Origin: Candidatus Flavonifractor intestinigallinarum
GTDB lineage: Bacteria > Bacillota > Clostridia > Oscillospirales > Oscillospiraceae
DNA length: 32,000 nucleotides
Direction: 5' to 3'
Assembly (NCBI GenBank): GCA_019119165.1
Contig: DWXO01000087.1
Location: 8,356-40,355, forward strand
Of this stretch, positions 7,514 through 21,291 are shown in pieces (position 1 is the first letter of the stretch; each line of letters begins with the position of its first letter). Position numbers and translations under genes: made by a program. The notes under the pieces were generated by a model. That model ran no database searches. It saw only the letters and a program-made list of their open reading frames with translations, and was not told the DNA's origin.

Positions 7514-7556
7514 AAAAGGAAGCCTGTAACCGCAATGGTTACAGGCTTCCTTTTAT
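7514..7556. terminator. Bidirectional intrinsic terminator between convergent operons
   Basis: AAAAGGAAGCCTGTAACC, loop GCAAT, GGTTACAGGCTTCCTTTT. There is an A-run on one side and a T-run on the other, so it serves both strands. Confidence 0.85.
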
Positions 7557-7564
7557 TCTATTTT

Positions 7565-7789
7565 TCATGGCTGGTCCTGCCACAGGCGGCGGATCTCCCG
7601 CCCTTCAAGTCCCGTCAGATCGGCGCACTGGGCGGAGCAACCGCATACCACCAGCAGCTGGTCGTAGCAAACTCCGGGGATTGCCCCCTCGAAGGTATCC
7701 TCCTGCCGCTCCCTCCGGATGCGCTCCACCAGGGCCACCCGGTCATACCGGGGATTGCAGCCGCCGCAGTATTTCACTCCGACCCGCAC
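7565..7789 (-). CDS. Small Cys-rich protein (74 aa; CGGC...CGC..C), unknown function
   Basis: GTG start with GGGGAGAG 5 nt upstream. It overlaps the 3' end of the NifU-like gene by 16 nt (translational coupling). Motifs KYCGGCNPRYDR and VVCGCSAQC suggest metal or Fe-S binding. Any CGGC-domain resemblance is recollection only. Confidence 0.55.
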   Translation of the reverse strand: MRVGVKYCGGCNPRYDRVALVERIRRERQEDTFEGAIPGVCYDQLLVVCGCSAQCADLTGLEGREIRRLWQDQP

Positions 7790-8085: not shown

Positions 8086-8091
8086 CTTTTC

Positions 8092-9543
8092 TCACTCCTT
8101 GACGTGGGCGATCTTCTTGGCCAGTTCCTTCTTCATGGGCAGGTTGCCCTGGCGGGCGATCATGATGCGCTGAGCCTGGGGAGAGCCGGCGCCATGGAGG
8201 GACTCGGTACGGTAGCCCACGGCGGCGGTGCCCAGGGTCAGGTTCTCAATGAGGCGCAGGATGCGGAAGCGGTTCTCTACCGACACGCCGGGGGCGGCCT
8301 TGAAATACTTTTCCACATAGGGCCCCAGCTTGGGGTCCTTCAAATCGGCCTCGGCGGGGGCGGTGACCACCACGCCGCCGGCAATGTCCTCGGCCAGCCG
8401 GGCAATCTCATAGGGGAAGCGGGTGACGTTCTGCTTGCACACGTTGGCCAGCAGCAGGTCGATGATGTAGTTGCCGCTGGCGGTGGCGTGTCCCTCGGCG
8501 GAGCAAGCAATGCCGCAGCAGTACAGAGTCTCGTTCAGGTGGGTCATCTCAATGAGCTTATCCTTGATGTGGGATGCCTTGGCACAGCCGTTGTAGTCGG
8601 CGGCCACGGCGGCGGCGCCGATGAGCACGTCGCCCACGCCCACCTTGCACCCGCCGTAGCTCTGGCGGTGATAGCCGGCAAACCGCTCCACCAGCATCCC
8701 GGCGAATTCGGTCTCACCGCACATGAAGATGCGGTCGTTGGGCACAAACACGTCGTCAAAGACTACCAGGGCCTCCACGCCGCCAAACTCGGCATTGCCC
8801 ACGTCCAGCTCGCTGCCCTCCAGCTTCCGGGTGTCGCAGCTCTGGCGGCCGATGATCATGAAGATGCCCTCGGCGTCCATGGGTACGGCAAAGGACACAG
8901 CGTAGTCCTTGTCCTCCGGCCCCATGGAGATGGTGGGCATAATGATGATCTCATGGCTGTTCAGCGCGCCGGTCTGGTGGGCCTTGGCGCCCCGGACCAC
9001 AATGCCATCTGGGCGGCGCTCCACCACACGCAGGAACAGATCGGGATCCTCCTGCTCATGAGGAGCCTTGGACCGGTCACCCTTGGGGTCGGTCATGGCA
9101 CCGTCCACCGTCAGGTCGTGCTCCTGGACATAGGCGGCAAACTTCTTGAAATTCTCATGATAGCTGGTACCATACTTCTGGTCAATCTCGTAGGTGGTGG
9201 AATAGACGGCGTTGAAGGCGTCCATACCCACGCACCGCTGGAAGCAGGCGGCGGTCTGCTGACCCAGCAGCCGCTGCATCTTTACCTTCTTCACCAGGTC
9301 CTGGGCAGACTGGTGAATGTGGGTGAAGCGGTTGACCTGCTGGCCGGTCAGGTTGGAGGTGGCGGTCATCAGGTCCTGGTACTCCGGCTTCTGGGCCAGG
9401 TCATAGGTCATGCGCACGCTGTTCAGCGAGGGGCGGAGGATGGGATCGTCCACCGGATTCTCCACCTTCTTGCCAAACATATAGACCTGCATCTTCATAT
9501 TGCGGATGCTCTCAATGTACTGTTCCCCTGTCATCAGTGCCAT
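8092..9543 (-). CDS. abfD: 4-hydroxybutyryl-CoA dehydratase / vinylacetyl-CoA delta-isomerase
   Basis: Collinear along its full length with Clostridium aminobutyricum AbfD as I recall it. Shared blocks include KVKMQRLLGQQTAACFQRCVGMDAFNAV, DGAMTDPKGDRS, FAGYHRQSYGGCKVGVGDV, MTHLNETLYCCGIACSAEG, LLANVCKQNVTRFPYEI and GYRTESLHGAGSPQAQRIMIARQGN. Confidence 0.9.
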   Translation of the reverse strand: MALMTGEQYIESIRNMKMQVYMFGKKVENPVDDPILRPSLNSVRMTYDLAQKPEYQDLMTATSNLTGQQVNRFTHIHQSAQDLVKKVKMQRLLGQQTAACFQRCVGMDAFNAVYSTTYEIDQKYGTSYHENFKKFAAYVQEHDLTVDGAMTDPKGDRSKAPHEQEDPDLFLRVVERRPDGIVVRGAKAHQTGALNSHEIIIMPTISMGPEDKDYAVSFAVPMDAEGIFMIIGRQSCDTRKLEGSELDVGNAEFGGVEALVVFDDVFVPNDRIFMCGETEFAGMLVERFAGYHRQSYGGCKVGVGDVLIGAAAVAADYNGCAKASHIKDKLIEMTHLNETLYCCGIACSAEGHATASGNYIIDLLLANVCKQNVTRFPYEIARLAEDIAGGVVVTAPAEADLKDPKLGPYVEKYFKAAPGVSVENRFRILRLIENLTLGTAAVGYRTESLHGAGSPQAQRIMIARQGNLPMKKELAKKIAHVKE

Positions 9544-9562
9544 GTTGTTCCCTTCCTTTCTC

Positions 9563-10408
9563 TTACTTCAGGCTGAGGATCTCCCGGGCCTCGTCGGGGG
9601 TGGCAACCTTCTTGCCGAACTCCTCGATGACCCGGCGGGCCCGATCCACGAACTGGACGTTGCTCTCAGCCAGCACGCCCTTGGTGTACATCACGTTGTC
9701 CTCCATGCCCACACGGATGTGGCCGCCCAGGGCCACAGCGCCGTACAGCATGGTGAGGGCGGAGTGGCCCACGCCGAAGCAGCTCCAGGTGGAGCCGGGG
9801 CACAGGGACTCCATGGTCTCCTTCATAAAGATCAGGTTCTTCATGGTGCCCGGGATACCGTTGGCGCAGCCCATGCAGAACTGGAAGTGCAGCGGAGCCT
9901 TCAGCACGCCCTTTTTGAGGTAATACTGGGCATTGGCGATCATACCAGGATCAAAGGCCTCGATCTCCGGCTTGATGTGGTTGTCCTCCATGATCTTGCC
10001 CAGCTTCTCCAGGAAGGCGGGGGGATTGAGGAACAGGCCGGTGTGCATCCAGTTCATGGAACCGCAGTCATAGGAGGCCATCTCGGGACGCAGCTCCACA
10101 ATGTGCTCATAGCGGCACTCCTCGTTGGGGAAGGAGGCGGCGCCAGAGGTGGTCATATTCAGAATGATATCGCAGTCGGGATGGTTGCCCCGCAGCAGCT
10201 CCACCGTCTGACGGAATTTGTTTTTGTCCATGGCGCCGTTGCCTTCGTCGTCCCGCATATGGATATGGGCGATGGCGGCTCCCGCCTTCCAGCAGGCGTA
10301 GATGTCCTCCGCAATCTCCGCGGGGGTCATGGGCACGTTGGGGTTGTTCTCTTTCTTGGGCCACGCGCCGGTGGTGGCCACGGTAATAATGGTCTTGTCC
10401 TGGCTCAT
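9563..10408 (-). CDS. BKACE family enzyme (beta-keto acid cleavage enzyme, DUF849 / 3-keto-5-aminohexanoate cleavage enzyme-like)
   Basis: Typical BKACE features: N-terminus IITVATTG...PMTPAEIAEDIYACWKAGAAIAHIHMRDDEG, then NMTTSG and GGHIRVGMEDN. I chose the second ATG (10408) because AGGAGG is too close to the ATG at 10414. Confidence 0.85.
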   Translation of the reverse strand: MSQDKTIITVATTGAWPKKENNPNVPMTPAEIAEDIYACWKAGAAIAHIHMRDDEGNGAMDKNKFRQTVELLRGNHPDCDIILNMTTSGAASFPNEECRYEHIVELRPEMASYDCGSMNWMHTGLFLNPPAFLEKLGKIMEDNHIKPEIEAFDPGMIANAQYYLKKGVLKAPLHFQFCMGCANGIPGTMKNLIFMKETMESLCPGSTWSCFGVGHSALTMLYGAVALGGHIRVGMEDNVMYTKGVLAESNVQFVDRARRVIEEFGKKVATPDEAREILSLK

Positions 10409-10476
10409 TTCCATTCCTCCTTAATTCCTGATGTCCGCCCCCTCTGGGCCGGATCTCATAACAGCAAAATTAAAAA

Positions 10477-10492
10477 GCAAAACTCATGCCAA
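10477..10492 (-). promoter_or_regulatory. Sigma-54 (-24/-12) promoter for the BKACE-abfD-nifU-like operon
   Basis: The minus strand reads TTGGCATGAGTTTTGC. GG and GC are 12 nt apart as in the TGGCAC-N5-TTGC consensus. It lies about 70 nt upstream of the start codon. Confidence 0.8.
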
Positions 10493-10529
10493 TTTATTTT
10501 CACCCTTTTGGGCCGCTTTGCGCCGCCGC

Positions 10530-10589
10530 CATTGCATTTTGGAAACAGACCTCGCTTATTTTTCTATTCCCTGTTGCATACCTGCATCA
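10530..10589. promoter_or_regulatory. Pair of enhancer-like dyads (UAS) between divergent sigma-54 promoters
   Basis: CATTGC-ATTTTG-GAAACA (10530-10547) and TGTTGC-ATACCT-GCATCA (10572-10589). Both are variants of TGTTGC-N6-GCAACA, with centres 42 bp apart. Confidence 0.6.
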
Positions 10590-10637
10590 TCCGCCAATTT
10601 AACCGGGCGGTTTTATACAGAAACCAGCCAAGATTGT

Positions 10638-10653
10638 TGGCATCCGGCTTGCA
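10638..10653 (+). promoter_or_regulatory. Sigma-54 (-24/-12) promoter for the thiolase/alcohol dehydrogenase operon
   Basis: TGGCATCCGGCTTGCA, about 50 nt upstream of the ATG at 10704. Confidence 0.8.
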
Positions 10654-10703
10654 TAGTCTCTCTCCAGAATCCACCTCACCACTTTCAGAGAGGAGACATA
10701 CTT

Positions 10704-11882
10704 ATGAATCATGTTGCCATCGTTGCCGCCTGCCGCACCCCCATCGGGACCATCGGCGGCCAGTTCAAAACCCTCACCGCTCTGGACCTGTCTGTTCCGG
10801 TGATGCAGGCCCTGGTACAGCGCTCCGGCGTAGACCCCGCCCTCATTGATGATGTGATCTGGGGCTGTAACTACCAGCGCACCTATCTGGAGAACAACCT
10901 TGCCCGGGTGGCCGCCGTCAAGGCCGGTCTGCCCGACACCGTGCCCGGCATCACCGTCCACCGCAACTGCACCTCCTCCATGTCCTCCATTCAGCTGGGT
11001 TTCTATCAGATCATGGCGGGAGAGGCCAAGTGCATCATGGCCGGCGGCGCCGACTGCATGAGCGCCGCTCCCTTTATGGTGTTTGACGCCCGCTACGGCA
11101 AGAAATACGGCCACATGGAGCTGCGGGACTCCATGTGGGACTCCCTGACCAACCTGGGGGTGGGCCCCGCCATGGGCATCACCGCTGAGAACGTGGCCGA
11201 CGCCTACAACGTTACCCGGGAGGATATGGATCAGTACGCCCTCCGCTCCCAGCAGCGGGCCGCCGCTGCTATTGATGCGGGCAAGTTCGAGGAGGAGATC
11301 ATCCCCATCACCGTCCACGGCAGAAAGGGCGATACCGTCATTACCACCGACGAGCACGTCCGCCGGGACACCACCCTGGAGAAGCTGGCCAAGCTGAAGC
11401 CCACCTTCAAGGCCGATGGCCGGGTCACCGCCGGCAACTCCTCCGGCATGAACGACGCCTCCTCCGGCGTGCTGCTGATGGAGGAAGAGCTGGCCAAATC
11501 CCTGGGGCTGCCTGTGCTGGCCCGGGTGGTGGCCACCGCCACTACCGGCGTCTCCCCCGACCTGATGGGCATCGGCCCCATCAGCGCCACCCAGAAAACT
11601 CTGGAGAAGGCAGGCCTCACTGTGGCCGACATCGATCTCTTTGAGATCAACGAGGCCTTTGCCGCCCAGTGCGTGGCCTGCCAGCGCACCCTGGGCATTG
11701 ACGAGGACAAGCTGAACGTCAACGGCGGCGGCATCTCCCTGGGCCATCCCGTGGGCGCCACCGGCAGCCGTCTGGTGGTCACCCTGCTCCACGAGCTCAA
11801 GCGCCGGGGCGGCAGATACGGCCTGGCCACCCTGTGCGCCGGCGGCGGCATGGGTACCGCCGTCCTTATTGAGATGGCCTGA
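10704..11882 (+). CDS. Acetyl-CoA C-acetyltransferase (thiolase)
   Basis: Start at 10704 (GAGAGGAGA RBS). The upstream part of the track ORF covers the promoter region. Thiolase blocks: VAACRTPIG, NRNCTSSMSSI (nucleophile Cys), NEAFAAQ, GGGISLGHPVGATG, CAGGGMG. Confidence 0.9.
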   Translation: MNHVAIVAACRTPIGTIGGQFKTLTALDLSVPVMQALVQRSGVDPALIDDVIWGCNYQRTYLENNLARVAAVKAGLPDTVPGITVHRNCTSSMSSIQLGFYQIMAGEAKCIMAGGADCMSAAPFMVFDARYGKKYGHMELRDSMWDSLTNLGVGPAMGITAENVADAYNVTREDMDQYALRSQQRAAAAIDAGKFEEEIIPITVHGRKGDTVITTDEHVRRDTTLEKLAKLKPTFKADGRVTAGNSSGMNDASSGVLLMEEELAKSLGLPVLARVVATATTGVSPDLMGIGPISATQKTLEKAGLTVADIDLFEINEAFAAQCVACQRTLGIDEDKLNVNGGGISLGHPVGATGSRLVVTLLHELKRRGGRYGLATLCAGGGMGTAVLIEMA

Positions 11883-11896
11883 GCTTCGGTACGCCT

Positions 11897-13063
11897 ATGA
11901 AAGACTTTACATTTTCCTTCCCCACCCGGGTCATCTTCGGGCGGGATGCGGAGGGGCGGGCCGGGGAGCTGGCCGCCCCCTTCGGCCCCAATGTCATGGT
12001 TCTCTACGGCAGCGACCGCATCCGCCGCAGCGGCCTGCTGGACCGGCTCACCGCCGATCTGGAGAGCCACGGCCTGACGGTCACTCTGTTCGGAGGTATT
12101 CAGGAAAATCCCCTCCTCTCCAAGGCGGAGGAGGGGCGGCGGCTGGCCCGGGAGAAGAAGATCACCCTCCTGCTGGCCGTGGGCGGCGGCAGCGTCATTG
12201 ACACCGCCAAAGCCGTCAGTCTGGGGGCCAAAAGCACCGCGCCTCTCTGGGACATCTACTCCGGCAAGGGAAAAGCCCAAAAGGCCCTGCCCATCGGGGT
12301 GGTGCTCACCACCGCCGCCACCGCCAGCGAGGCCTACAGCGTATCGGTGCTCTGTCACGATGAGCTCCATTTAAAGGTAGCTCTGGAGGAGCCGCTGACC
12401 CGGCCCCGTTTCGCCCTGATGGACCCGGCCCTCACCTTCTCCCTACCCCCCCGGCAGACCGCCTCCTGCGGGGTGGACATCTTCTCCCACGCCTTTGAGC
12501 GCTACTTCCACAAGGGCCAGCAGGGTACCCTCCGCAGCCAGATGTGCGCCGCCGTGATGCGCACCGTTATCGCCGAACTGCCCAAGGCACTGGCCCATCC
12601 CGACGACTACGACGCCCGCAGTCAGCTCATGTGGGCCGCCACCGTGGCCCACAGCGATATGCTGGGGTTTGAGGGGGATTTCGCCTGTCACGCCATCTCC
12701 CACGTCCTCACCACCGCCCTGGGGCTCCCCCACGGCGTGGCTCTGGGCATTCTCATGACCGCCTGGTGCAAGTATATGCTCACCGATGAGACCCAGGCCA
12801 TTGCCGACTTCTCCACCCTGGTGTGGCAGGTCCCCCCCTGCTCCAGCCAGATCCAGACCGCTCAGAACGGCATCTCCGCCTTCCAGGAGTTTCTCTGCTC
12901 GGCGGGCCTGCCCGTTACCCTGCGGGAGGCCGGTTTCGGCAATGTCTCTCTGGAGGAGCTGGCCGGGCTGGCCCTCCCAGGCGGGGCCGGCACTCTGGGG
13001 GGGAATTTCCGCCCCCTGGATTACAGCGCGGTGCTGAGCTTGTTGCAGCTGGCCCGGGGTTAA
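11897..13063 (+). CDS. Iron-containing (group III) alcohol dehydrogenase, butanol dehydrogenase/YqhD-like
   Basis: F.FPTRVIFG start, the GGGSVIDTAKAV nucleotide loop, and His-rich metal site region (HAISHVL, PHGVALGI). Lies 14 nt after the thiolase gene. Confidence 0.85.
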   Translation: MKDFTFSFPTRVIFGRDAEGRAGELAAPFGPNVMVLYGSDRIRRSGLLDRLTADLESHGLTVTLFGGIQENPLLSKAEEGRRLAREKKITLLLAVGGGSVIDTAKAVSLGAKSTAPLWDIYSGKGKAQKALPIGVVLTTAATASEAYSVSVLCHDELHLKVALEEPLTRPRFALMDPALTFSLPPRQTASCGVDIFSHAFERYFHKGQQGTLRSQMCAAVMRTVIAELPKALAHPDDYDARSQLMWAATVAHSDMLGFEGDFACHAISHVLTTALGLPHGVALGILMTAWCKYMLTDETQAIADFSTLVWQVPPCSSQIQTAQNGISAFQEFLCSAGLPVTLREAGFGNVSLEELAGLALPGGAGTLGGNFRPLDYSAVLSLLQLARG

Positions 13064-13065
13064 GC

Positions 13066-13103
13066 TGTTGCAATTCGGAAATACCCATTGCCGCTGTGCA
13101 ACA
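13066..13103. promoter_or_regulatory. Pair of enhancer-like dyads upstream of the MFS gene
   Basis: TGTTGC-AATTCG-GAAATA (13066-13083) and CATTGC-CGCTGT-GCAACA (13086-13103). Centres 20 bp apart, about 70 bp upstream of the -24 element. Confidence 0.55.
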
Positions 13104-13163
13104 GGTAAGTACCTTTCCTCCCGCTCAGCGGGCAATTTTAACCCCATTTCCCTGTTTTTGTGT

Positions 13164-13179
13164 TGGCATCAGGATTGCT
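13164..13179 (+). promoter_or_regulatory. Sigma-54 (-24/-12) promoter for the MFS transporter
   Basis: TGGCATCAGGATTGCT. Confidence 0.8.
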
Positions 13180-13299
13180 TTTATTCTGTTTCGCTAAATC
13201 AAGTGCGGAGAGAGGAGGCACGTCTTGCAGCCGGAGCAAACCCGGCACAGCGCAGCCAACATCCACATCCTACAGCGCAAATGAGGAGTGAGTAAAACT

Positions 13300-14598
13300 A
13301 TGAGTAAAAAGAACCCCCAGATCGCCAGTGAAAACATGAAGATGAATTTCTCCAAAGGTTGGGGCATCATTCTCTACCAGGCTCTGATGTTCTTCTTCCT
13401 GATCGGTTTCTCCATCGACGGTCTGAACATCGTGGCTCCGGCCTTCTCCGAGGCCACCGGCGTAGACTACCCCAGCGTACTGAGTATGGCTACCGTGGCC
13501 GGCATGATCGGCGTGGTGGTTTACATCTTCATTGCCCGTATCAACGTGAAGGTGGGCGCCCGGCTGCTGTCCGGTGTGTGCCTCATCGGCGCCGGCGCCT
13601 CCTACATCTTCCTGGGCAACAGCAAGACTCTGGTGACCTACTGCATCGCCCTGACTCTGGTCACCTGCTTCATCAACGGCGCCGCCTATATCGCCGGCAA
13701 CACCCTGATCGCCCAGTGGTTCCCCAAGAAGAAGGGCCTGGCCAACGGCTTCACCACCATGGGCCACAACTGCGGCTCCGCCTTCTATGTGCCTCTGATC
13801 TCCTTCGCCATCGGCACCTTCGGCTTTGCCAGCGGCATGAGCTATGTGGCCATCGGCGCCATCGTGCTGGGCATCATCGGCCTACTTTTCGTCCGCAACA
13901 CCCCCCAGGAGTGCGGAATGTACCCCGACAACGTTACCAAGGAAGTGTATGAGCGGGAGTATTTCCAGGGCAACAGCGAGGACAACGGCGGCTGGACCGC
14001 GGGCAAGCTGCTCAAGACCCGTGAGCTGTGGCTGTGCGCCCTCATCATCGGCATCAACCAGCTGGTCACCACCGGCGTCATGAGCCAGCTGGTGGTCCGC
14101 AACACCAGCCTGGGCTTCTCCCAGGAGTCTGCCGTGGGCCTGATGACCGTGTGCGCCATCATCGGTGTGTGCGGCTCCTACCTCTTCGGCGCCATTGACC
14201 AGAAGTTCGGCGTCAAGAAGGCCATCATTCTCTTCCTCATCTGGTACTGCATCGCTCTGGCCGTCAACTGCACCGACACCACCATCGGCGTGTATGTGTC
14301 CGTGGCCATGATCGGCATCGCCGTGGGCGCCGCCGCCAACTTTATCGTGTCCCTGCCCGCTTCCGTGTTCGGCCGTCACGGCTTCACCATGGTGAACTCC
14401 GTGTTCTTCCCCCTGATGCAGATCGTGCTGATGACCAACTACCTGGTCAACGCCTTCGCGCTGAAGATCACCGGCAGCCTGCGGGGCGCCTACATCTTCT
14501 ACATCGGCCTGCTGGTGGTCAACATAATCCTCACCGCCGTGATCAACCCCACCAAGTACAACAAGGACGTGGCTACCGAGCAGGAGCTGCTGAAGTAA
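13300..14598 (+). CDS. MFS transporter (12-TM, oxalate/formate-antiporter-like subfamily guess)
   Basis: ATG at 13300 lies 12 nt after AGGAG; the GTG at 13288 abuts the RBS. The protein is hydrophobic throughout with two six-helix halves separated by a charged loop (PDNVTKEVYEREYFQGNSEDNGG). Confidence 0.85.
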   Translation: MSKKNPQIASENMKMNFSKGWGIILYQALMFFFLIGFSIDGLNIVAPAFSEATGVDYPSVLSMATVAGMIGVVVYIFIARINVKVGARLLSGVCLIGAGASYIFLGNSKTLVTYCIALTLVTCFINGAAYIAGNTLIAQWFPKKKGLANGFTTMGHNCGSAFYVPLISFAIGTFGFASGMSYVAIGAIVLGIIGLLFVRNTPQECGMYPDNVTKEVYEREYFQGNSEDNGGWTAGKLLKTRELWLCALIIGINQLVTTGVMSQLVVRNTSLGFSQESAVGLMTVCAIIGVCGSYLFGAIDQKFGVKKAIILFLIWYCIALAVNCTDTTIGVYVSVAMIGIAVGAAANFIVSLPASVFGRHGFTMVNSVFFPLMQIVLMTNYLVNAFALKITGSLRGAYIFYIGLLVVNIILTAVINPTKYNKDVATEQELLK

Positions 14599-14637
14599 GC
14601 TGATTCCATTCCCTTTCTATTCCATTTATATCCCTCT

Positions 14638-14681
14638 AAGCAGCAAGGCCCGCCGGAAGATTCCGGCGGGCCTTGCTGCTT
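14638..14681. terminator. Bidirectional terminator hairpin between the MFS gene and the activator gene
   Basis: AAGCAGCAAGGCCCGCCGGAAGATTCCGGCGGGCCTTGCTGCTT, a long perfect stem followed by ATTTG. Confidence 0.8.
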
Positions 14682-14688
14682 ATTTGAA

Positions 14689-16260
14689 TCAGCTTCTGCG
14701 GTTTTCATAGTCGATCTCGTACTGTTTGATCTTGCGGCAGATGGTGGAGGCGTTGATATTCAGCTTGCGGCTGGCGTCCCGCAGGTTAGAGGAGCCTTTC
14801 AGCACTTGCTCCAGGAGGCGCTTTTCAAAGTCCGCCACCGCTGTATTGAAGTCCACACCCTCGGCGGGCAGCTCAGGGGCGGGCTCCGGCCGGGGCGGCT
14901 CCGCCTTGGGAGCGGCGGGCTGGGGCTCGGGGATCTCCTCCGGCACGTTCAGCAGGCCGCGGAGCACGTCGTCCTCAATCCGGCCAATGCCGGAGCTGCA
15001 CAGGATCAGATACTCCATCACGTTTTCCAGTTCCCGGATGTTGCCCGGCCAGGAATAGCGCTTCATATAGTCGATCTGCCACTGAGTCAGGCTGAAGGTG
15101 CGGTCGTACTTCTTGGTAAAGCGGTCAATGAAGTACTCACACAGGTCCTCAAAGTCCTCGGTGCGCTGCCGCAGGGCGGGCACCGCAATGGGGATCACAT
15201 TGAGCCGGTAGTAGAGGTCCTGCCGGAAGGTGCCCTCCGACACCTTTTTCTTCAAATCCGCGTTGGTCAGGGCCAGAAAACGGATGTCCAGCTTGATGGG
15301 CCGGGTGCCGCCGATGCGGGTAATCTCCTGGGACTGGATGGCCCGCAGCAGCTTCACCTGCAGATCCATGGGCATATCCCCGATCTCATCCAGCATCAGG
15401 GTGCCGTGGTTGGCGTACTCAAAGAGGCCCACCTTGCCCTTGGCGTTGGCGCCGGTAAAGGCCCCCTTCTCATAGCCGAACAGCTCGGACTCCAGCAGGT
15501 GGCCCGGGATGGAGGCGCAGTTGATCTTCACATAGGGCTTGTCCCGGCGCAGACTGCGGCGGTAGATCTCGTCGGCCACCACCTCCTTGCCCACTCCCGA
15601 CTCGCCGGTGATGAGCACCGAGGCGTCGGTGGGCGCGATCCGGTCCAGCAGGGTATCGATCTGTTTCAGAGAGCCGTATTTTCCCACCATGCTGCCCGAC
15701 AGATGCTTGTCCGAATCCTTGCTGATGGTTCTGGGATGGATGGCGTTGACCTCCTTGACAAAGGCCTCGAAATCCTCCTGCAGGGAACTGAGGCTCATAA
15801 TGGGCCGGCTACAGGCCACCACCTGCCGCAGGCTGCCGTCCGGCTTGAAGATGGGGGTTCCCATCACATAGCCCACCAGGGGCTCCCCAGTTTTATAGGT
15901 GGTGGACAGGCGGAAGGCGCTCTTTTTGTTCTCCAGCACACTGGTCACCGCCCCGCCGGTAAAAAGCTTGTCCTCCCCGATCAGGGTGTGGATATCCCGG
16001 TTCAGGACCTCCTCCTCGGTGATCCCCGTATTGCGGGTATAGGCAGGATTGACATAGAGGACGGTCCCATCGGCATCCGTGATCATGATGCTGTCGTCCA
16101 GCCCGTCCACTACCTCTTTAAAGTCAATGCCCCGGTCATGGAAGGCCTGCAGGCGGTGATCGATCTCCTCCAGCTTGGCCACCAGCTCCGGGCGGTCACT
16201 CTCATCCATCACAAGCCGCAGCAGCTTTCTTACTTCTCTTATGGCGGAATATTGGTTCAT
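14689..16260 (-). CDS. Sigma-54-dependent transcriptional activator (PAS sensor - AAA+ - Fis-type HTH)
   Basis: Start at 16260 (GAGGAGGAG RBS). Domains in order: PAS-like (IMITDADGTVLYVNPAYTRNTGI), Walker A GESGVGKE, the sigma-54 contact loop GAFTGA, Walker B LDEIGDM, a Pro-rich linker, and C-terminal HTH (LRDASRKLNINASTICRKIKQYEI). Confidence 0.9.
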   Translation of the reverse strand: MNQYSAIREVRKLLRLVMDESDRPELVAKLEEIDHRLQAFHDRGIDFKEVVDGLDDSIMITDADGTVLYVNPAYTRNTGITEEEVLNRDIHTLIGEDKLFTGGAVTSVLENKKSAFRLSTTYKTGEPLVGYVMGTPIFKPDGSLRQVVACSRPIMSLSSLQEDFEAFVKEVNAIHPRTISKDSDKHLSGSMVGKYGSLKQIDTLLDRIAPTDASVLITGESGVGKEVVADEIYRRSLRRDKPYVKINCASIPGHLLESELFGYEKGAFTGANAKGKVGLFEYANHGTLMLDEIGDMPMDLQVKLLRAIQSQEITRIGGTRPIKLDIRFLALTNADLKKKVSEGTFRQDLYYRLNVIPIAVPALRQRTEDFEDLCEYFIDRFTKKYDRTFSLTQWQIDYMKRYSWPGNIRELENVMEYLILCSSGIGRIEDDVLRGLLNVPEEIPEPQPAAPKAEPPRPEPAPELPAEGVDFNTAVADFEKRLLEQVLKGSSNLRDASRKLNINASTICRKIKQYEIDYENRRS

Positions 16261-16321
16261 CGCGCTCCTCCTCACCGTTTCTGTCGGGCATTGTACCGGC
16301 ACGCAAGTGCCGCAAAGGGAT

Positions 16322-17188
16322 TTAAAAGGTCAGCTCCTTGATCTGGGCAATGCCCTCCCGCTGGACGCCCCTGGCATAGGGATACTCCGGATAGCCGAAC
16401 CCCAGAATCAAGCTGTAATACCGGTCTTTAGGAATTTGCAGCAGCTGTTCCACCTCCGGCATATGGGACAGAGCCCCCACCGGGTAGGACATAATGATGG
16501 ACCCCAGCCCGTGGGAGGCGCAGATCAGGTCAAACCAGGCCGCGGCCAGCACCGGGTCGGTCTGCCACTGACCTCTGCCCCGCTGGGAGTGGATCACCAG
16601 AATGTGGGGCGCGTTGACGAAGAACATATCGCCCGGGTTGCGGCCAGGCTCCCACTCCAGCTGCTTCTCCCAATCGCTTTTGGTGAAGGAACCGGGGTAG
16701 ATCCCCTGCTCCGCCAGCCGGAAGGCCTCCTCCCGCACCAGCTTGCGCAGCTTGTCCATCTCCGCCTTCCGGTACACCACGTTGAAGCCCAGAGTCTGCA
16801 AGTTGCTGCCGGTAGGCACGTTCTCCAGCAGCCGGAGCATCTGGTCGATCTCCTCCCGGGGCACCTCCCGGTCCTGATAGCGGCGGCAGGCCCGCCGGTT
16901 GCGCATCAGGGCCTCCAGCTGGCGGGCGTTGGCCCCCTCCTCGGGCAGCAGGGAGTCCTTGGGGTCCTTGTCAAAGATGGAAATGGCGCCGGTGGGGCAC
17001 ACCGCCAGACAGTGCTGGCAGCGATAGCAGCCGTCCCAGCCTGCCACGCCGTCGGCCTCCTCCTTCATTCTGGGGACTCCCTGCCCGTCAAAGTACAGGA
17101 TCACCGAAGAACAGGATGCAACGCACCTGCCGCAGTGGATACATTGATCCGGGTTTGCCTTGAAATGAAAGCTCTTCACCAGCTCCAC
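16322..17188 (-). CDS. 4Fe-4S dicluster ferredoxin domain fused to a nitroreductase-family flavoprotein
   Basis: N-terminal CIHCGRCVASC and CYRCQHCLAVCP motifs. The rest is nitroreductase-like (RRACRRYQDREVP...NVPTGSNLQ...). GTG start at 17188 or GTG at 17179; the exact start is uncertain. Confidence 0.8.
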   Translation of the reverse strand: MELVKSFHFKANPDQCIHCGRCVASCSSVILYFDGQGVPRMKEEADGVAGWDGCYRCQHCLAVCPTGAISIFDKDPKDSLLPEEGANARQLEALMRNRRACRRYQDREVPREEIDQMLRLLENVPTGSNLQTLGFNVVYRKAEMDKLRKLVREEAFRLAEQGIYPGSFTKSDWEKQLEWEPGRNPGDMFFVNAPHILVIHSQRGRGQWQTDPVLAAAWFDLICASHGLGSIIMSYPVGALSHMPEVEQLLQIPKDRYYSLILGFGYPEYPYARGVQREGIAQIKELTF

Positions 17189-17277
17189 GCTCCTTGTCGC
17201 TCCATTTGAGTAATCTCTATTATAGCCTGCTTGTCAACTCGATGTCTAATGGGCGCAGGCCTAACAAAAGGAATTAA

Positions 17278-17293
17278 GCAAATTGGATGCCAG
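17278..17293 (-). promoter_or_regulatory. Sigma-54 (-24/-12) promoter for the ferredoxin-nitroreductase gene (and probably the activator)
   Basis: The minus strand reads CTGGCATCCAATTTGC, about 90 nt upstream of the start. Confidence 0.8.
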
Positions 17294-17331
17294 CTTTATC
17301 CATATGATGCCGGCCCAATGTTGCCCTCGCC

Positions 17332-17392
17332 CATTGCATTTTTGCAACTTGTTGCCGATTCGCCTTCTGGGCGCTGTTGCTATTCCGCAACA
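17332..17392. promoter_or_regulatory. Pair of enhancer-like dyads between divergent sigma-54 promoters
   Basis: CATTGC-ATTTTT-GCAACT (17332-17349) and the perfect TGTTGC-TATTCC-GCAACA (17375-17392), centres 43 bp apart. Extra TGTTGC half-sites at 17319 and 17350. The layout matches 10530-10589. Confidence 0.65.
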
Positions 17393-17438
17393 TTCCCCGA
17401 TCATCCGGGAAAACAGGGCTGTTTTCCCCTGAAATTTT

Positions 17439-17454
17439 TGGCATGGGATTTGCA
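17439..17454 (+). promoter_or_regulatory. Sigma-54 (-24/-12) promoter for the 3-hydroxyacyl dehydrogenase gene
   Basis: TGGCATGGGATTTGCA. Confidence 0.8.
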
Positions 17455-17528
17455 TTATTCACAGGCAAGCACAATGTTGTCCGCGACAACCCAGCTGACA
17501 AAGATCAAAAAGAAATGAGGAATCAACC

Positions 17529-18434
17529 ATGGGCAAGATCAAAGCAGTGTTTGTTGGCACCGGCATGATCGGAGCCGGCCTGGCTGCCAACGCCATGCTG
17601 AACGGCTACGAGACCGTCCTCTACGATGTGGTCCCCCAGGAGAAGATGCGGGAGAACATCAGCCACATTCTGGACATTCTGGTGGAGGCGGGGGCCGCCA
17701 CCAGGGCCCAGGCCGACCAGGCTCTGGCCGACTGCCAGTTCTCCAACAACCTGGAGGAGGCGGTCAAGGGGGCTCACTTCGTGCAGGAGTGCATCCCCGA
17801 GCGGCTGGAGCTGAAAAAATCCACCTATGCCGCCATCCAGAAGGTGACCGGCCCCGACGCCGTCATTTGCAGCTCCACCTCCAAGCTCTTCCCCACCAAG
17901 CTGCAGGAGGACGCCCTCTATCCCCAGTCCATCCTGGTGGGCCACCCCTACAATCCCTCCTATCTGCTCCCCCTCATTGAACTGTGCGGCGGCGAGCAGA
18001 CCTCCCCGGAGGCCATCCAGCAGGCCAAGGAGATCTACACCGGCATGGGCAAGGTGGCGGTGGTCTGCAAGAAGGAGATCTACGGCTTCATCGTCAACCG
18101 CCTGTCCTGGGCCGCGCTGGAGGCCGCCAAAGAGTGCGTGCGCGACGGCGTCTGCTCCGTGGAGGATATGGACAAGGCCATCATGTTCGGCCCCGGTATG
18201 CGTATGGCGGTGACCGGCCAGCTGCTCACCATCAGCCTGGGTGTGGACGGCGGTTTCCGGGCCATCGCCGAGAAATACGGCGAGGAGCCCACCCCCTGGA
18301 ATGAGGTGTACGCCCAGGGCGTGGACGAGGAGATCGCCAACCGGGACCCCGCCATGGGCAACACGGTGGACGGCGTGTGCAAGTTCCGGGATCACGCCTT
18401 TGCGGAGCTGCTGAAGCTGCACAAGCTGCTCTGA
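17529..18434 (+). CDS. 3-hydroxyacyl-CoA dehydrogenase family protein (carnitine/gulonate 3-dehydrogenase-like; may act on a free beta-hydroxy acid)
   Basis: Rossmann loop VGTGMIGAGLA, ECIPERLELKK, GHPYNPSYLLPLIEL, and C-terminal dimerisation domain. GAGGAA RBS. Confidence 0.8.
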   Translation: MGKIKAVFVGTGMIGAGLAANAMLNGYETVLYDVVPQEKMRENISHILDILVEAGAATRAQADQALADCQFSNNLEEAVKGAHFVQECIPERLELKKSTYAAIQKVTGPDAVICSSTSKLFPTKLQEDALYPQSILVGHPYNPSYLLPLIELCGGEQTSPEAIQQAKEIYTGMGKVAVVCKKEIYGFIVNRLSWAALEAAKECVRDGVCSVEDMDKAIMFGPGMRMAVTGQLLTISLGVDGGFRAIAEKYGEEPTPWNEVYAQGVDEEIANRDPAMGNTVDGVCKFRDHAFAELLKLHKLL

Positions 18435-18454
18435 TCCCGCCCCAATCCGCCGGT

Positions 18455-18502
18455 TGTTTCATTTTTGCAACAGAGCATCTTGCTTGTGTCAGTTGCGCAA
18501 CA
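18455..18502. promoter_or_regulatory. Pair of enhancer-like dyads upstream of the DUF362 operon
   Basis: TGTTTC-ATTTTT-GCAACA (18455-18472) and TGTGTC-AGTTGC-GCAACA (18485-18502), centres 30 bp apart. Confidence 0.6.
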
Positions 18503-18552
18503 AAATTCCTCCGTTATTTTCCAAAAATCAGGCCGTTTACCCCAAAAATACT

Positions 18553-18568
18553 TGGCATTTGATTTGCA
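18553..18568 (+). promoter_or_regulatory. Sigma-54 (-24/-12) promoter for the DUF362/small protein/cyclase operon
   Basis: TGGCATTTGATTTGCA. Confidence 0.8.
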
Positions 18569-18620
18569 GTTATCATGAGTGTAATGAATGACACACCAAA
18601 TTCTGAAGGGAGAACTGAGT

Positions 18621-19907
18621 ATGTCTGACAAAAAAGCGCTGGTCGCTCTGGCCAAGGAGGCCAGCATCCAGGAGAGCGTCACCAAGGTCTTTGACCTGAT
18701 GGGCGGCGTCACCAACATGATCAAGCCCGGCACCACCGTAATGCTCAAGCCCAACGCCGGTCACGCCTCCCCCGCCGACACCTCCGTGTGTACCAACCCC
18801 GAGGTGGTTCGTGCCGTCATCCGTGAGGTCAAGAAGGCCAATCCCAAGAGCATCGTTATCGCTGAGGCCGCCGCCATCGGCTGCGATACCATGGAGTGCT
18901 ATGAGGTTTCCGGCATCGCCGACGTAGCCCGGGAGGAGGGCGTGGAGCTCTACGACATCAAGGCCGACAAGGACCTGATCAATGTAGCCGTCCGGGGCTA
19001 CCGCTCCAATCTGCACCACGTCAAGCTGCCCCGCCGTCTGCTGGAGGCCGACCACCTGATCAACCTGCCCATCCTGAAGGCCCACGCCAGCATGGTGTTC
19101 TCCTGCGCCCTGAAGAACATCAAGGGCGTGGTGCAGGACGCCGTCCACCTGCAGATGCACCAGCAGAATCTGACCATGGCCATGATGGACGTGTGGAGCG
19201 TCTGCCGGGCCGACATCAACATCGTGGACGCCATCCGTCCCGCCAGCGGCTACTCCCCCCACACCCCGGTGCCCATCGAGGTGGGCTGCATTCTGGGTTC
19301 CACCGACCCCGTGGCCGTGGACCTGATCGCCTGCGACCTGGTGGGCATCGACGCCGAGGCGGTGGACTACTTCCGGGTGGCCGCCGAGACCGGCCTGGGC
19401 ATCACCGAGCGGGAGGACATCGACGTGGTGGGCGCCTCCGTCAAGGACTGCTACAAGAAGATGTGGGTCCCCTACATTGGCGACATGAGCACCCGCTGGC
19501 CTGAGTACAAGGTGCTGTGCGACGGCGCCTGCTCCAGCTGCCAGGCCCTGCTGGCCATCAACATGGAGACGCTGAAGGCCATTGGCGACTACGAGCGCCG
19601 TTCCGATTTCGTGGTAGTGGCCGGCGGCAAGAACCAGATCCCCGCCGACGTGGACGACAAGAAGCTGGTGCTCCACGGCAACTGCACCCGCAAGTACCTG
19701 AAGGATCACCCCGACGCCATCCACATCGAGGGCTGCCCCCCCTCCGAGCCGCTGCTCTATATGTCCATCAGCAACGGCGAGCTGGTCCACGGCAAGGGCG
19801 GCCAGATGAGCGAGTACATCCGTCCCCGCATGGCCGCCGACCAGCCGGTGTGGCGCAAGTATGTGGAGGAGCAGGCCAAGAAGTTCTACGGCAGTCAGGA
19901 AGGTTGA
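18621..19907 (+). CDS. DUF362-like protein with a C-terminal Cys cluster (uncharacterised, possibly Fe-S/metal binding)
   Basis: Start at 18621 (GAAGGGAGA RBS). The track start 18588 would be almost leaderless relative to the sigma-54 promoter. The N-terminal pattern (VMLKPNAG...TNPEVVRAVIREV...IVIAEA) matches my memory of DUF362. C-terminal CDGACSSCQALL...HGNCTRKY...EGCPPSE. Confidence 0.6.
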   Translation: MSDKKALVALAKEASIQESVTKVFDLMGGVTNMIKPGTTVMLKPNAGHASPADTSVCTNPEVVRAVIREVKKANPKSIVIAEAAAIGCDTMECYEVSGIADVAREEGVELYDIKADKDLINVAVRGYRSNLHHVKLPRRLLEADHLINLPILKAHASMVFSCALKNIKGVVQDAVHLQMHQQNLTMAMMDVWSVCRADINIVDAIRPASGYSPHTPVPIEVGCILGSTDPVAVDLIACDLVGIDAEAVDYFRVAAETGLGITEREDIDVVGASVKDCYKKMWVPYIGDMSTRWPEYKVLCDGACSSCQALLAINMETLKAIGDYERRSDFVVVAGGKNQIPADVDDKKLVLHGNCTRKYLKDHPDAIHIEGCPPSEPLLYMSISNGELVHGKGGQMSEYIRPRMAADQPVWRKYVEEQAKKFYGSQEG

Positions 19908-19909
19908 CC

Positions 19910-20182
19910 ATGGCGTTTCAATATGTGGACTATCCCCAGGAGATGAAGGATCTGCTCAGCCGCATTTTCAGCGACGCTTTTATGCAGACCCATACCCGCT
20001 TCCAGTCCTTTGAGGGCTTCCGCTACTCCAGCGCGGTGTTCGTCAACTGGAATTCCGACCAGCTCATCTATAATGAGGCTCTGCTGGACCGCTTCGTCCA
20101 GGAAAGCACCCAGTTCTCCTCCTGGGAGGAGATGGTGCGTACCGCCGCCGACCAGTGCTTTCAGCCCGCCGTTTGTTCCTGA
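19910..20182 (+). CDS. Hypothetical 90-aa protein
   Basis: The ATG lies 2 nt after the DUF362 stop, with CAGGAAGG upstream. Codon usage is like its neighbours. It sits inside a longer track ORF (19517-20182) whose upstream part is an alternate frame of the DUF362 gene. No family recognised. Confidence 0.55.
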   Translation: MAFQYVDYPQEMKDLLSRIFSDAFMQTHTRFQSFEGFRYSSAVFVNWNSDQLIYNEALLDRFVQESTQFSSWEEMVRTAADQCFQPAVCS

Positions 20183-20227
20183 ATCCAGAGAATATCCATC
20201 CATTCTAAACGAAAAGGAGTTATCACT

Positions 20228-21046: not shown

Positions 21047-21181
21047 TCCGCCGCTCATAAAAGAAAAAGAGATGACAGGCCAAGGGCTACTCCTCACAAG
21101 GACATCTTGAGATTAACCCAAGAATGACCGATTGAGAGAAGCCCTGGGGTGTCTGCCCCAAATGTTTCAAATGGGGAAATA

Positions 21182-21220
21182 GCCGCAAGCCACAACAAGA
21201 TGGCTTGCGGCCATTATTTA
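21182..21220 (+). terminator. Probable terminator of the DUF362-cyclase operon
   Basis: GCCGCAAGCCA, 8-nt loop, TGGCTTGCGGC, then CATTATTTATAT (a weak T tract). Confidence 0.5.
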
Positions 21221-21291
21221 TATCATAGGCATGATAGAAATCGAAACAAGTCAATTTGTTGGTTTTGTGCTGCACGGGGATATAATTATAC

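Follow-up and report, generated by a model that had tools for sequence, protein, structure and literature searches.

The window, which is the whole 32-kb stretch of DNA analysed here, comes from a Flavonifractor-like genome of the gut Clostridia and contains an island of catabolic genes that was originally put at ~13 kb. Its size agrees with that estimate (13.5 kb), although the island extends beyond the coordinates given at the time, from about 7,565 to 21,046. The following genes and hairpins were assigned to it; its six transcription units are named after promoters P1 to P6, listed further below.

7514..7554: hairpin with a 19-bp stem and a T run, likely end of the P1 unit
7565..7789, minus strand: Cys-rich ORF of 74 aa, last gene of the P1 unit, AF_0334-like in L090
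7774..8085, minus strand: NifU-like protein (PF01106)
8092..9543, minus strand: HpaB-family protein, the abfD of the P1 unit
9563..10414, minus strand: BKACE (beta-keto acid cleavage enzyme), first gene of the P1 unit
10704..11882, plus strand: thiolase
11897..13063, plus strand: iron-containing alcohol dehydrogenase (Fe-ADH)
13301..14598, plus strand: MFS transporter, lactate or oxalate:formate type
14689..16260, minus strand: enhancer-binding protein (EBP) of 523 aa, the presumed dyad reader
16322..17188, minus strand: 2x[4Fe-4S]-nitroreductase fusion, first gene of the P4 unit
17529..18434, plus strand: 3HCDH-family dehydrogenase
18621..19907, plus strand: DUF362 protein
19910..20182, plus strand: ORF of 90 aa
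20228..21046, plus strand: cyclase-family metal hydrolase (PF04199), last gene of the P6 unit
21182-21211: terminator-like hairpin 3′ of the cyclase-family hydrolase gene

The BKACE was recognised by PF05853 (350 bits) and has Kce 2y7d as its closest solved structure. The abfD product was assigned by a Pfam domain search and metagenome matches, and shows 66–80% identity over the aligned stretch to HpaB/AbfD-type ORFs of two metagenome loci (L128 and L130); the order abfD-nifU is found also in the related loci L081 and L090. For the 74-aa Cys-rich ORF there was no match in the Pfam copy used, and its equivalent in L090 carries PF27236. The thiolase, Fe-ADH and MFS transporter were identified by domain or model matches and the DUF362 protein by a domain match. 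The transporter start was taken from L090, and the gene length in L090 makes ATG 18621, not 18588, the most likely start of the DUF362 gene. The 90-aa ORF, which gave no Pfam match, always comes after DUF362 in related loci, and the nitroreductase fusion gene adjoins the activator gene in L090 and L089 as well. As the 3HCDH-family dehydrogenase is lambda-crystallin- or carnitine-dehydrogenase-like, its substrate is probably a free beta-hydroxy acid.

The only regulator encoded in the island had been described as a PAS-AAA+(GAFTGA)-HTH protein, and exactly these domains were found in the EBP, whose start is at 16260: a sigma-54 AAA+ domain (PF00158, 224 bits), a PAS domain (PF00989, 49 bits) and a Fis-type HTH (PF02954, HTH_8; 27.7 bits, cutoff 22). 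Both the GAFTGA motif, at ORF residue 280, and the recognition helix NAST..RKI.Q of the HTH are invariant across the orthologues, which show 52–98% identity in full-length alignment.

Six -24/-12 elements in canonical GG/GC register had been reported for the island. All six read as quoted, each being TGGCAT-N5-TTGC, and they are given here with a sigma-70-like box.

10477..10492, minus strand: promoter P1, TTGGCATGAGTTTTGC, for BKACE-abfD-nifU-small ORF; conserved in L090, L081 and L083
10637..10653, plus strand: promoter P2, TTGGCATCCGGCTTGCA, for thiolase and Fe-ADH; conserved in the alignments
13163..13179, plus strand: promoter P3, TTGGCATCAGGATTGCT, for the MFS transporter
17219..17248, minus strand: sigma-70-like TAGACA-18-TATAAT, downstream of P4, 11/12 positions matching
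17277..17293, minus strand: promoter P4, CTGGCATCCAATTTGCT, for the Fer4-nitroreductase, then the activator gene; conserved in L090
17438..17454, plus strand: promoter P5, TTGGCATGGGATTTGCA, for the 3-hydroxyacid dehydrogenase; conserved in the alignments
18552..18568, plus strand: promoter P6, TTGGCATTTGATTTGCA, for DUF362, small ORF and cyclase; conserved in the alignments

Exact matches to TGGCAT-N5-TTGC number 6 in the 32-kb window vs. 0.13 expected, a count reached in none of 100 shuffles, and all of them lie between genes and face a gene (6/6 each). The only further TGGCA-N7-TGC within the 32 kb, at 9601 on the plus strand, is antisense inside the BKACE gene. The P3 sequence is identical in L090 and also in many gut metagenome contigs, and at the position equivalent to P4, L081 has a promoter facing its own activator gene. 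The proposed distance of 50–110 nt between promoters and gene starts fails for P3, which has a leader of ~122 nt (to the ATG at 13301); it stands for P6 if the DUF362 gene starts at its more likely ATG, 18621, 54 nt away (21 nt if the start were 18588). The TAGACA-18-TATAAT box may, from its sequence, serve as a basal promoter for the nitroreductase and activator genes. No rpoN is present in the 32-kb window; an rpoN adjoins a XanR-type cluster in the metagenome locus L130, and sigL was reported in the relatives F. plautii YL31 and Intestinimonas (Nie et al. 2019, Table S1, PMC6615313).

Eight dyads, two per intergenic region and with a perfect copy at 17375-17392, were located where the original prediction had placed them. 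Scored against the 18-bp consensus TGTTGC-N6-GCAACA they have 0–3 mismatches; distances are from the dyad centre to the GG of the -24 element.

10530..10547: UAS dyad, CATTGCATTTTGGAAACA, 3 mismatches, 49 bp to P1 and 101 bp to P2, conserved block
10572..10589: UAS dyad, TGTTGCATACCTGCATCA, 1 mismatch, 91 bp to P1 and 59 bp to P2
13066..13083: UAS dyad, TGTTGCAATTCGGAAATA, 2 mismatches, 91 bp to P3
13086..13103: UAS dyad, CATTGCCGCTGTGCAACA, 2 mismatches, 71 bp to P3
17332..17349: UAS dyad, CATTGCATTTTTGCAACT, 3 mismatches, 50 bp to P4 and 100 bp to P5
17375..17392: UAS dyad, TGTTGCTATTCCGCAACA, perfect, 93 bp to P4 and 57 bp to P5
18455..18472: UAS dyad, TGTTTCATTTTTGCAACA, 1 mismatch, 91 bp to P6
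18485..18502: UAS dyad, TGTGTCAGTTGCGCAACA, 2 mismatches, 61 bp to P6

At ≤2 mismatches the 32-kb window holds 7 dyads vs. 1.32 expected (0/100 shuffles reached 7), and 6 of these 7 fall inside the 1,052 bp that make up the four intergenic regions (binomial 9e-9). Among the eight, three show 3 mismatches or a single weak half-site. For the dyad at 13086..13103, relatives show a perfect GTTGCCGCCGTGCAAC at 70 bp. Elsewhere the dyad is rare: 1.41 Mb from loci of unrelated activators held 0 perfect copies and only 6 with one mismatch. One control region also has a second palindrome, at 17407-17428.

Spacings between dyads of 42, 20, 43 and 30 bp had been claimed, together with a common layout of the two divergent regions, and both are correct; the dyad-to-GG distances are 49/91 and 59/101 bp in one region and 50/93 and 57/100 bp in the other. 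The dyad centres, at 49–101 bp from the -24 GG, are in helical phase: the 12 distances in the window fall at 4.5–9.0 modulo 10.5 (vector length R = 0.77), the best period is ~10.5 bp with L081 and L083 pooled in, and the same pattern is seen in L081 and L083 separately, these distances being non-independent because dyads are shared between promoters and the loci are homologous. The divergent arrangement occurs twice in the one island in near-identical form, with ~150 bp from GG to GG and dyads 42–43 bp apart. This spacing of four turns is found also in Flavonifractor L081, and the counterpart pair in Oscillibacter L083 is separated by ~40 bp, with a third, weaker site in between. The proximal dyads in the window, at ~50–60 bp, are closer than the UAS distance of 100–250 bp typical in Nie et al. 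(PMC6615313), and a simple DNA loop would therefore be tight.

Multi-genus alignments with the orthologous Flavonifractor and Oscillibacter loci show conserved blocks at the -24/-12 elements and at the dyads, while the flanks diverge, and no further conserved motif was found in those alignments. The same elements stand 5′ of the same gene families beside orthologous activators in Flavonifractor, Oscillibacter, Catenibacillus-like and Clostridium sp. SY8519 loci. They recur in Lachnospiraceae loci, some of which have several promoters without a recognisable dyad within 220 bp. Of the 28 sigma-54-type promoters in the orthologue loci, 17 have a dyad ≤150 bp upstream; in the loci of unrelated EBPs, none of 47 such promoters has one (Fisher 7e-10). 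These sequence comparisons tie the dyads to the activator family and show the promoters to be conserved across genera.

The motif has a published counterpart. The XanR group in Clostridium comprises Cbei_2099, CKL_3021 and CTK_RS03630, and its predicted motif upstream of abfD-nifU is GTTGCA-N4-TGCAAC (Nie, Dong, Yang 2019, BMC Genomics 20:565, PMC6615313). Sites such as GTTGCGTTTTTGCAAC and GTTGCATACATGCATC are given there as UAS 5′ of the sigma-54 promoters of abfD-nifU operons, XanR binding itself being a comparative-genomic prediction (PMC6615313). Common to both systems are the UAS core GTTGC-N6-GCAAC, the promoter type TTGGCAT-N5-TTGC, the abfD-nifU target (in the window the P1 unit, BKACE-abfD-nifU) and, with the proteins compared by domain architecture alone, the PAS-HTH_8 organisation of CTK_RS03630. 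Window positions 10573-10588 match the C. tyrobutyricum (CTK) site GTTGCATACATGCATC at 15 of 16 positions. The published target acp-caiC-luxEC is found beside orthologues of the window activator in L087 and L089, and is absent from the 32-kb window. The two systems differ in lineage (Oscillospiraceae and Lachnospiraceae vs. Clostridium) and in the CBS-PAS arrangement of two of the three published members. Published regulons comprise 1–2 operons with the UAS ~110–220 bp from the promoter, whereas in the window six promoters share 13.5 kb, the UAS lies at 49–101 bp in helical phase, and two of the control regions are bidirectional; moreover, BKACE, thiolase, Fe-ADH, transporter, 3HCDH, DUF362, cyclase and nitroreductase are not among the published targets. 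The motif and the abfD-nifU link were thus already predicted in 2019, and the island is a well-documented further XanR-type example. It adds a new lineage, a larger local regulon, a compact layout that is phased and bidirectional, and a new enzyme content.

We consider it very probable that one XanR-type EBP controls the island as a local sigma-54 regulon, for which we infer activator binding and sigma-54 dependence. In silico evidence supports one PAS-AAA+(GAFTGA)-HTH activator driving six units over 7,565-21,046. Dimers of the 523-aa activator would bind the (T)GTTGC-N6-GCAAC(A) dyads, two per control region on the same helix face, ~50–60 and ~90–100 bp upstream of the -24 GG. The PAS domain would sense a small molecule, upon which the activator would assemble its AAA+ ring; the GAFTGA loops would touch sigma-54 holoenzyme parked at TGGCAT-N5-TTGC, with ATP used for promoter opening. 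The units so controlled would be BKACE-abfD-nifU-small ORF; thiolase-FeADH; MFS transporter; nitroreductase-activator; 3-hydroxyacid dehydrogenase; and DUF362-small ORF-cyclase. With the activator gene lying in the P4 unit, the protein probably drives its own gene too, which would give autoregulation by positive feedback from a basal level that the sigma-70-like promoter may provide.

The geometry makes it reasonable to suppose that, in each divergent region, the same dyad pair, in phase with both promoters, probably serves both. A variant of this model, which we hold to be rather unlikely, has each divergent promoter activated mainly from one dyad or by a separate assembly, allowing independent tuning. 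It would accommodate the proximal dyad that every divergent promoter has at 49–59 bp, the asymmetry in dyad quality (3 mismatches at the minus-strand promoter side vs. 0–1 at the plus-strand side) and the pairs only 20–30 bp apart at the co-directional P3 and P6. Yet it sits poorly with the phasing of both dyads to both promoters and with the four-turn spacing kept in the window and L081 (~40 bp in L083), which suggests one cooperative assembly across both dyads. Ring formation by NtrC-type activators also needs more than one dimer, a point against partitioned dyads.

Much less probable is that the sigma-54 promoters are real and the dyads are operators of another protein, a repressor or global regulator encoded elsewhere, with the activator binding another sequence or none. 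Dyad binding by the activator is predicted from sequence comparison, and the recognition helices of Fis-type HTHs are similar across many EBP groups, so that the protein sequence by itself cannot assign the motif; the palindrome at 17407-17428 also speaks for this reading. Against it, the dyad co-occurs with activator orthologues in two Clostridia families, whereas all 47 promoters belonging to other EBPs lack it. Its position (-74 to -125) and its phase relative to the -24 element are enhancer-like and not those of a promoter-overlapping operator, the alignments hold no other conserved motif, and a PAS or CBS-PAS EBP group whose genes lie beside abfD was given this motif in an independent study (PMC6615313). 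A chance or compositional origin of the matches, with no regulatory role, is effectively refuted by the comparative data: intergenic DNA in the window is AT-richer than coding DNA, so that whole-window shuffles slightly underestimate the local expectation, but the observed counts were reached in 0/100 shuffles, position and sequence are kept across genera while flanks diverge, and the dyad is specific to the activator family.

The XanR-type regulon may be set beside known sigma-54 systems. Divergent sigma-54 layouts are known from orp1/orp2 and from zraP/zraSR and hyc/hyp of E. coli. These resemble the island in that a single EBP governs operons from one shared intergenic region, and differ from it in that the island has the arrangement twice with near-identical geometry and no IHF involved; Bacillota are not known to have IHF, and no IHF site is expected in the window. 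The NifA enhancer is TGT-N10-ACA. With NtrC/NifA-type enhancers, as with the 15 Clostridiales EBP groups described as having TGT-N10-12-ACA motifs (PMC6615313), the island has in common a dyad-symmetric UAS, TGT-N12-ACA ends, paired sites and an activator with GAFTGA AAA+ and Fis-type HTH domains; in contrast, the XanR-type group alone has the inner half-site TTGC/GCAA, and the window activator has a single PAS as sensor, without a response-regulator or GAF domain. PMC8359166 describes the orp operons of Desulfovibrio vulgaris (orp1/orp2) together with OrpR as their EBP.

For the pathway encoded, the anaerobic phloroglucinol degradation cluster (PGR, DPGC, TfD, TAL, thiolase, transporter, regulator; Zhou et al. 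2023, mBio, PMC10470551) was considered as a candidate. At the level of families the island resembles it in the cyclase-family hydrolase, the 3HCDH-family dehydrogenase (probably on a free beta-hydroxy acid), BKACE, thiolase, transporter and regulator. Flavonoid degraders are known among several of the host taxa. The hydrolase, dehydrogenase and thiolase families are all present, the nearest solved structures being only distant for the first two. Neither the scanned window ORFs nor the called genes of related loci include an SDR-type phloroglucinol reductase, and the BKACE scores below the cutoff of the 3,5-dioxohexanoate (triacetate) transferase model (NF053538, 211.7 bits vs. cutoff 430); the Kce model fits it better, yet also below cutoff (298 against 382). 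The transporters of the window and related loci are carboxylate types (MFS or TRAP), and the window has extra abfD, nifU, Fe-ADH, DUF362 and nitroreductase genes. The enzyme content is thus similar to that of phloroglucinol degradation, but the tests that define this pathway, the SDR reductase and a triacetate-type BKACE, failed.

As a tentative proposal, on which we place less than even confidence, the regulon may encode an uncharacterised anaerobic route in which a cyclase-family ring or lactone hydrolase is followed by the free beta-hydroxy-acid dehydrogenase, BKACE and thiolase, a module linked to a 4-hydroxybutyryl-CoA-dehydratase-like enzyme plus NifU, Fe-ADH, DUF362 and ferredoxin-nitroreductase. 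The substrate would be a carboxylated compound taken up by the cell, with polyphenols or deoxy-sugar acids as its possible source, and the products would be acetoacetate and crotonyl-CoA, with block-wise activation by the XanR-type activator from unusually close, phased, bidirectional enhancers. If this is true, gut Oscillospiraceae and Lachnospiraceae would use the acetoacetate and crotonyl-CoA to form butyrate.

The genes of the island were mapped from Pfam and NCBIfam matches, and its promoters and dyads were re-read from the sequence. The resulting arrangement is as follows, with the six sigma-54 -24/-12 promoters (P1–P6) and the starts of the eight 18-bp dyads given for each control region.

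Genes and control regions of the island
7565-7789, minus, small Cys-rich ORF
7774-8085, minus, NifU-like protein
8092-9543, minus, HpaB/AbfD-type protein
9563-10414, minus, beta-keto acid cleavage enzyme (BKACE)
10415-10703, divergent control region 1 (P1, P2; dyads 10530, 10572)
10704-11882, plus, thiolase
11897-13063, plus, iron alcohol dehydrogenase (Fe-ADH)
13064-13300, control region 2 (P3; dyads 13066, 13086)
13301-14598, plus, MFS transporter
14689-16260, minus, activator
16322-17188, minus, ferredoxin-nitroreductase fusion
17189-17528, divergent control region 3 (P4, P5; dyads 17332, 17375)
17529-18434, plus, 3HCDH-family dehydrogenase
18435-18620, control region 4 (P6; dyads 18455, 18485)
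18621-19907, plus, DUF362
19910-20182, plus, 90-aa ORF
20228-21046, plus, cyclase-family hydrolase

The island is bracketed by strong hairpins, each followed by a T run (7514-7554 and 21182-21211). The DUF362 gene most likely starts at the ATG at 18621, preceded by GAAGGGAGA, which places P6 54 nt upstream. The GC content of the window is 59.8%, and the best protein matches (84–85% identity to named isolates, 98% to metagenome contigs) place it near Flavonifractor and Pseudoflavonifractor (Oscillospiraceae). An Rfam scan gave no leader RNA in the island; its sole match, a cobalamin riboswitch (RF00174, 85.6 bits; 21540-21767, plus), falls outside, directly 5′ of a 358-aa protein with four HNH_repeat domains. 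This gene and an Opp/Nik-like ABC system, whose second permease is fused to an SBP_bac_5 binding protein (819 aa, 23825-26284), occupy 21783-28002, and an ORF overlapping the riboswitch (21087-21782, minus) is probably spurious. At 458-4514 the gene for a 580-aa protein, which has an ECF sigma factor domain at its N terminus and is long extended at its C terminus, precedes that for a 597-aa double zinc-ribbon protein; the opposite window end (29096-31994) carries DUF6809, DUF6550 and DUF6076 genes, which resemble part of an integrated mobile element.

All six promoter elements read identically to those of the original prediction, and all eight dyads related to TGTTGC-N6-GCAACA lie where it had placed them, with 0–3 mismatches. 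TGGCAT-N5-TTGC matches six times in the 32-kb window vs. 0.13 expected from 100 dinucleotide-preserving shuffles of the window, none of which reached six. The looser TGGCA-N7-TGC adds one site only, at 9601-9615 (plus), antisense within the BKACE coding region; this match recurs in the same-species locus L090 and is probably a by-product of coding sequence. For dyads with at most two mismatches, 7 were observed vs. 1.32 expected in the window, and six of the seven are confined to the four intergenic regions, 1,052 bp in total (binomial 9e-9). A stretch of 1.41 Mb around unrelated sigma-54 activators contained no perfect copy and only six with one mismatch. The dyad-dyad spacings of 42, 20, 43 and 30 bp were correct as well, as was the layout shared by both divergent regions. 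The original observation is thus confirmed, and its interpretation is supported by every in silico test available. No rpoN gene lies within the 32-kb window; sigL is found in the relatives F. plautii and Intestinimonas (Nie et al., PMC6615313).

We then measured the distance from each dyad centre to the GG of the -24 element.

Dyad-to-promoter distances
P1 (10477-10492, minus): distal dyad 91 bp, proximal dyad 49 bp
P2 (10637-10653, plus): distal dyad 101 bp, proximal dyad 59 bp
P3 (13163-13179, plus): distal dyad 91 bp, proximal dyad 71 bp
P4 (17277-17293, minus): distal dyad 93 bp, proximal dyad 50 bp
P5 (17438-17454, plus): distal dyad 100 bp, proximal dyad 57 bp
P6 (18552-18568, plus): distal dyad 91 bp, proximal dyad 61 bp

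These distances put the sites at centres of roughly -74 to -125. All 12 fall at 4.5–9.0 modulo 10.5 (vector length R = 0.77), the same phase is seen in the Flavonifractor and Oscillibacter loci, and a period scan of the distances pooled from the window and these two loci (L081, L083) peaks at ~10.5 bp. As the distances are non-independent, with shared dyads and homologous loci, the phasing is descriptive and carries no formal probability. In the divergent pairs, every dyad lies on the same side of the helix relative to both promoters, and phasing to the GG is a stronger result than the dyad-dyad spacing remarked on originally. A metagenome scan for a perfect dyad followed by a promoter, meant as an independent test of phasing, gave 120 matches. 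Homologues of island genes could be recognised in about a quarter of the matches, of which roughly 25 (61 or 70–72 bp from dyad to promoter) were highly redundant homologous control regions; the matches outside this quarter lacked related genes and were background-like. The scan is consistent with the phasing, not decisive.

The control regions hold further elements. Between dyad 17375 and P5 lies a perfect 10-bp inverted repeat, GGGAAAACAG-gg-CTGTTTTCCC (17407-17428), present with one change in L090 and not in the Flavonifractor locus, which might serve as a site for a second regulator or form a hairpin in RNA or DNA. The P3 leader, differing from L090 at a single position, may encode a 19-codon upstream ORF (13225-13284, plus) with a TTG start 6 nt past GAGAGGAGG and a TGA overlapping the ribosome-binding site of the MFS gene. 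Taken jointly, the dyad pair of control region 2 (13065-13104) makes an imperfect inverted repeat of 18 nt (78% complementary) right after the Fe-ADH stop and could also act as an RNA hairpin ending the thiolase-FeADH transcript.

Orthologous activators were compared on contigs of Flavonifractor sp. AGMB03687 (L081), Oscillibacter (L083), an organism resembling Catenibacillus scindens (L085) and Clostridium sp. SY8519 (L087) and on metagenome contigs L088, L089 and L090, the last from the same species as the window. The orthologues compared, including those of the fetched contigs, are 55–98% identical to the window protein in full-length alignment. On every fetched contig the activator is surrounded by genes drawn from one common set of families: 3HCDH, cyclase (one or two copies), transporter (TRAP or MFS), thiolase, Fe-ADH, BKACE, AbfD-type protein, NifU, nitroreductase, and DUF362 together with its small ORF. 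Sigma-54-type promoters and dyads stand upstream of these genes in most orthologue loci, and the promoter-dyad-dyad-promoter order of the thiolase/BKACE divergent region is kept in Flavonifractor and Oscillibacter with near-identical distances. When the intergenic regions are aligned with MAFFT, little beyond the GG/GC elements and the dyad half-sites is invariant, and the flanking sequence has diverged.

As a negative control we used L001–L080, the loci of distant enhancer-binding proteins (EBPs) from a genome scan with the activator protein; the back-translated patterns being generic AAA+ motifs, that scan gave no EBPs but distant ones. Of the strict sigma-54-type promoters in the orthologue loci, 17 of 28 have a dyad no more than 150 bp upstream, as do 6/6 in the window, vs. 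0/47 in the unrelated-activator loci (Fisher 7e-10). By these counts, the dyad is specific to this activator family. The activator itself has PAS, sigma-54 interaction (224 bits), AAA lid and Fis-type HTH domains in Pfam and contains GAFTGA; since all orthologues are 521–529 aa long, translation must truly begin at the Met at 16260. The HTH recognition helix (NAST..RKI.Q) does not vary among the orthologues, which fits an unaltered DNA motif. Linking helix to motif through the HTHs of unrelated EBPs near perfect dyads was uninformative, the Fis-type helix being too generic.

Three metagenome loci deserve separate mention. In L148 and L197 the thiolase-FeADH genes are 94% and 84% identical to those of the window, with the same downstream dyad and promoter, and next to them stands an activator that is another EBP (38% identity); this points to replacement of the activator, or to a second EBP, in some strains at this locus. 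In L130 (contig OAWV01000135.1), an rpoN gene with Sigma54_AID, CBD and DBD domains (8347-9654) lies directly 3′ of an abfD<>nifU-maoC-MBL-luxE-luxC-AMP-ligase cluster; in this cluster, 61 bp separate a perfect dyad, GTTGCAAAAATGCAAC, from a TGGCAT-N5-TTGC promoter.

Sigma-54 regulons were reconstructed in 57 Clostridiales genomes by Nie, Dong and Yang (2019; PMC6615313), who described 39 activator groups, most with one operon and 93 activators with two to six, and UAS sites usually 100–250 bp from the promoter. Their XanR group (Cbei_2099, CKL_3021, CTK_RS03630) is assigned the targets abfD-nifU-... and acp-caiC-luxEC, and UAS sites including GTTGCGTTTTTGCAAC, GATGCAGAAGTGCAAC, GTTGCAATTATGCATA, TATGCAAAATTGCAAC and GTTGCATACATGCATC; its tabulated distribution is Clostridium only, and the nine activators of F. 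plautii are in the set (PMC6615313). The GTTGC-N6-GCAAC core is common to XanR and the window, where 10573-10588 (GTTGCATACCTGCATC) is one position off a C. tyrobutyricum site. CTK_RS03630 shares the PAS-HTH_8 architecture of the window protein, whereas the other two members are CBS-PAS. The abfD-nifU target is present in both; a luxEC-type operon is absent from the window and adjoins the orthologous activators in L087 and L089. Because UAS core, abfD-nifU target and architecture agree, the window system would work like XanR and very probably belongs to that group, as compared by motif, targets and domain architecture. It differs in its lineage, its six local promoters (the top of the published range), short UAS-promoter distances, phasing and duplicated bidirectional layout.

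The standard enhancer mechanism is the best-supported one for the island. Activator dimers would occupy the paired dyads, a ligand would be sensed via the PAS domain, and the AAA+ ring would form and touch the sigma-54 holoenzyme via GAFTGA, followed by ATP-driven promoter opening, with the six units turned on together. P4 would drive the nitroreductase gene and then the activator gene, giving positive feedback; in Flavonifractor sp. a sigma-54-type promoter also faces the activator gene. Between P4 and the start of the nitroreductase gene there is a sigma-70-like TAGACA-18-TATAAT element (17219-17248, minus; a match at 11 of 12 positions), which could supply the basal level of activator needed by the loop. 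Here we infer that the activator binds, that the promoters depend on sigma-54, that the dyads work in both directions and that an effector exists; as a transcription mechanism, this is textbook.

Several of the host taxa are known to degrade flavonoids. In C. scatologenes, anaerobic phloroglucinol breakdown (Zhou et al. 2023, PMC10470551) uses cyclase hydrolase, free beta-hydroxy-acid dehydrogenase, BKACE and thiolase families, and the island has members of these four families. However, no SDR-type phloroglucinol reductase was found in the window or any related locus, the BKACE scored 211.7, far below the cutoff of 430, on the 3,5-dioxohexanoate transferase model, and island-type loci carry carboxylate-type transporters. 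For these reasons the island was not assigned to this pathway. A search found no solved structures of characterised phloroglucinol enzymes. The AbfD-type protein, NifU and Fe-ADH instead connect the island with 4-hydroxybutyrate, the theme of the published XanR regulons, and our literature search returned no paper tying the cluster to sigma-54 and none on a BKACE-AbfD cluster. A more novel reading, rather less likely than not, is an uncharacterised catabolic route feeding butyrate under a compact bidirectional enhancer.

Six promoters, eight sites and one activator make a clean, testable cis/trans map of a conserved catabolic island in butyrate-producing gut Clostridia. The range of the XanR motif is widened from Clostridium to Oscillospiraceae and Lachnospiraceae, and the co-regulated genes form a candidate pathway. 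Compact, phased and bidirectional, these enhancers may offer a test bed for short-range sigma-54 activation without IHF.
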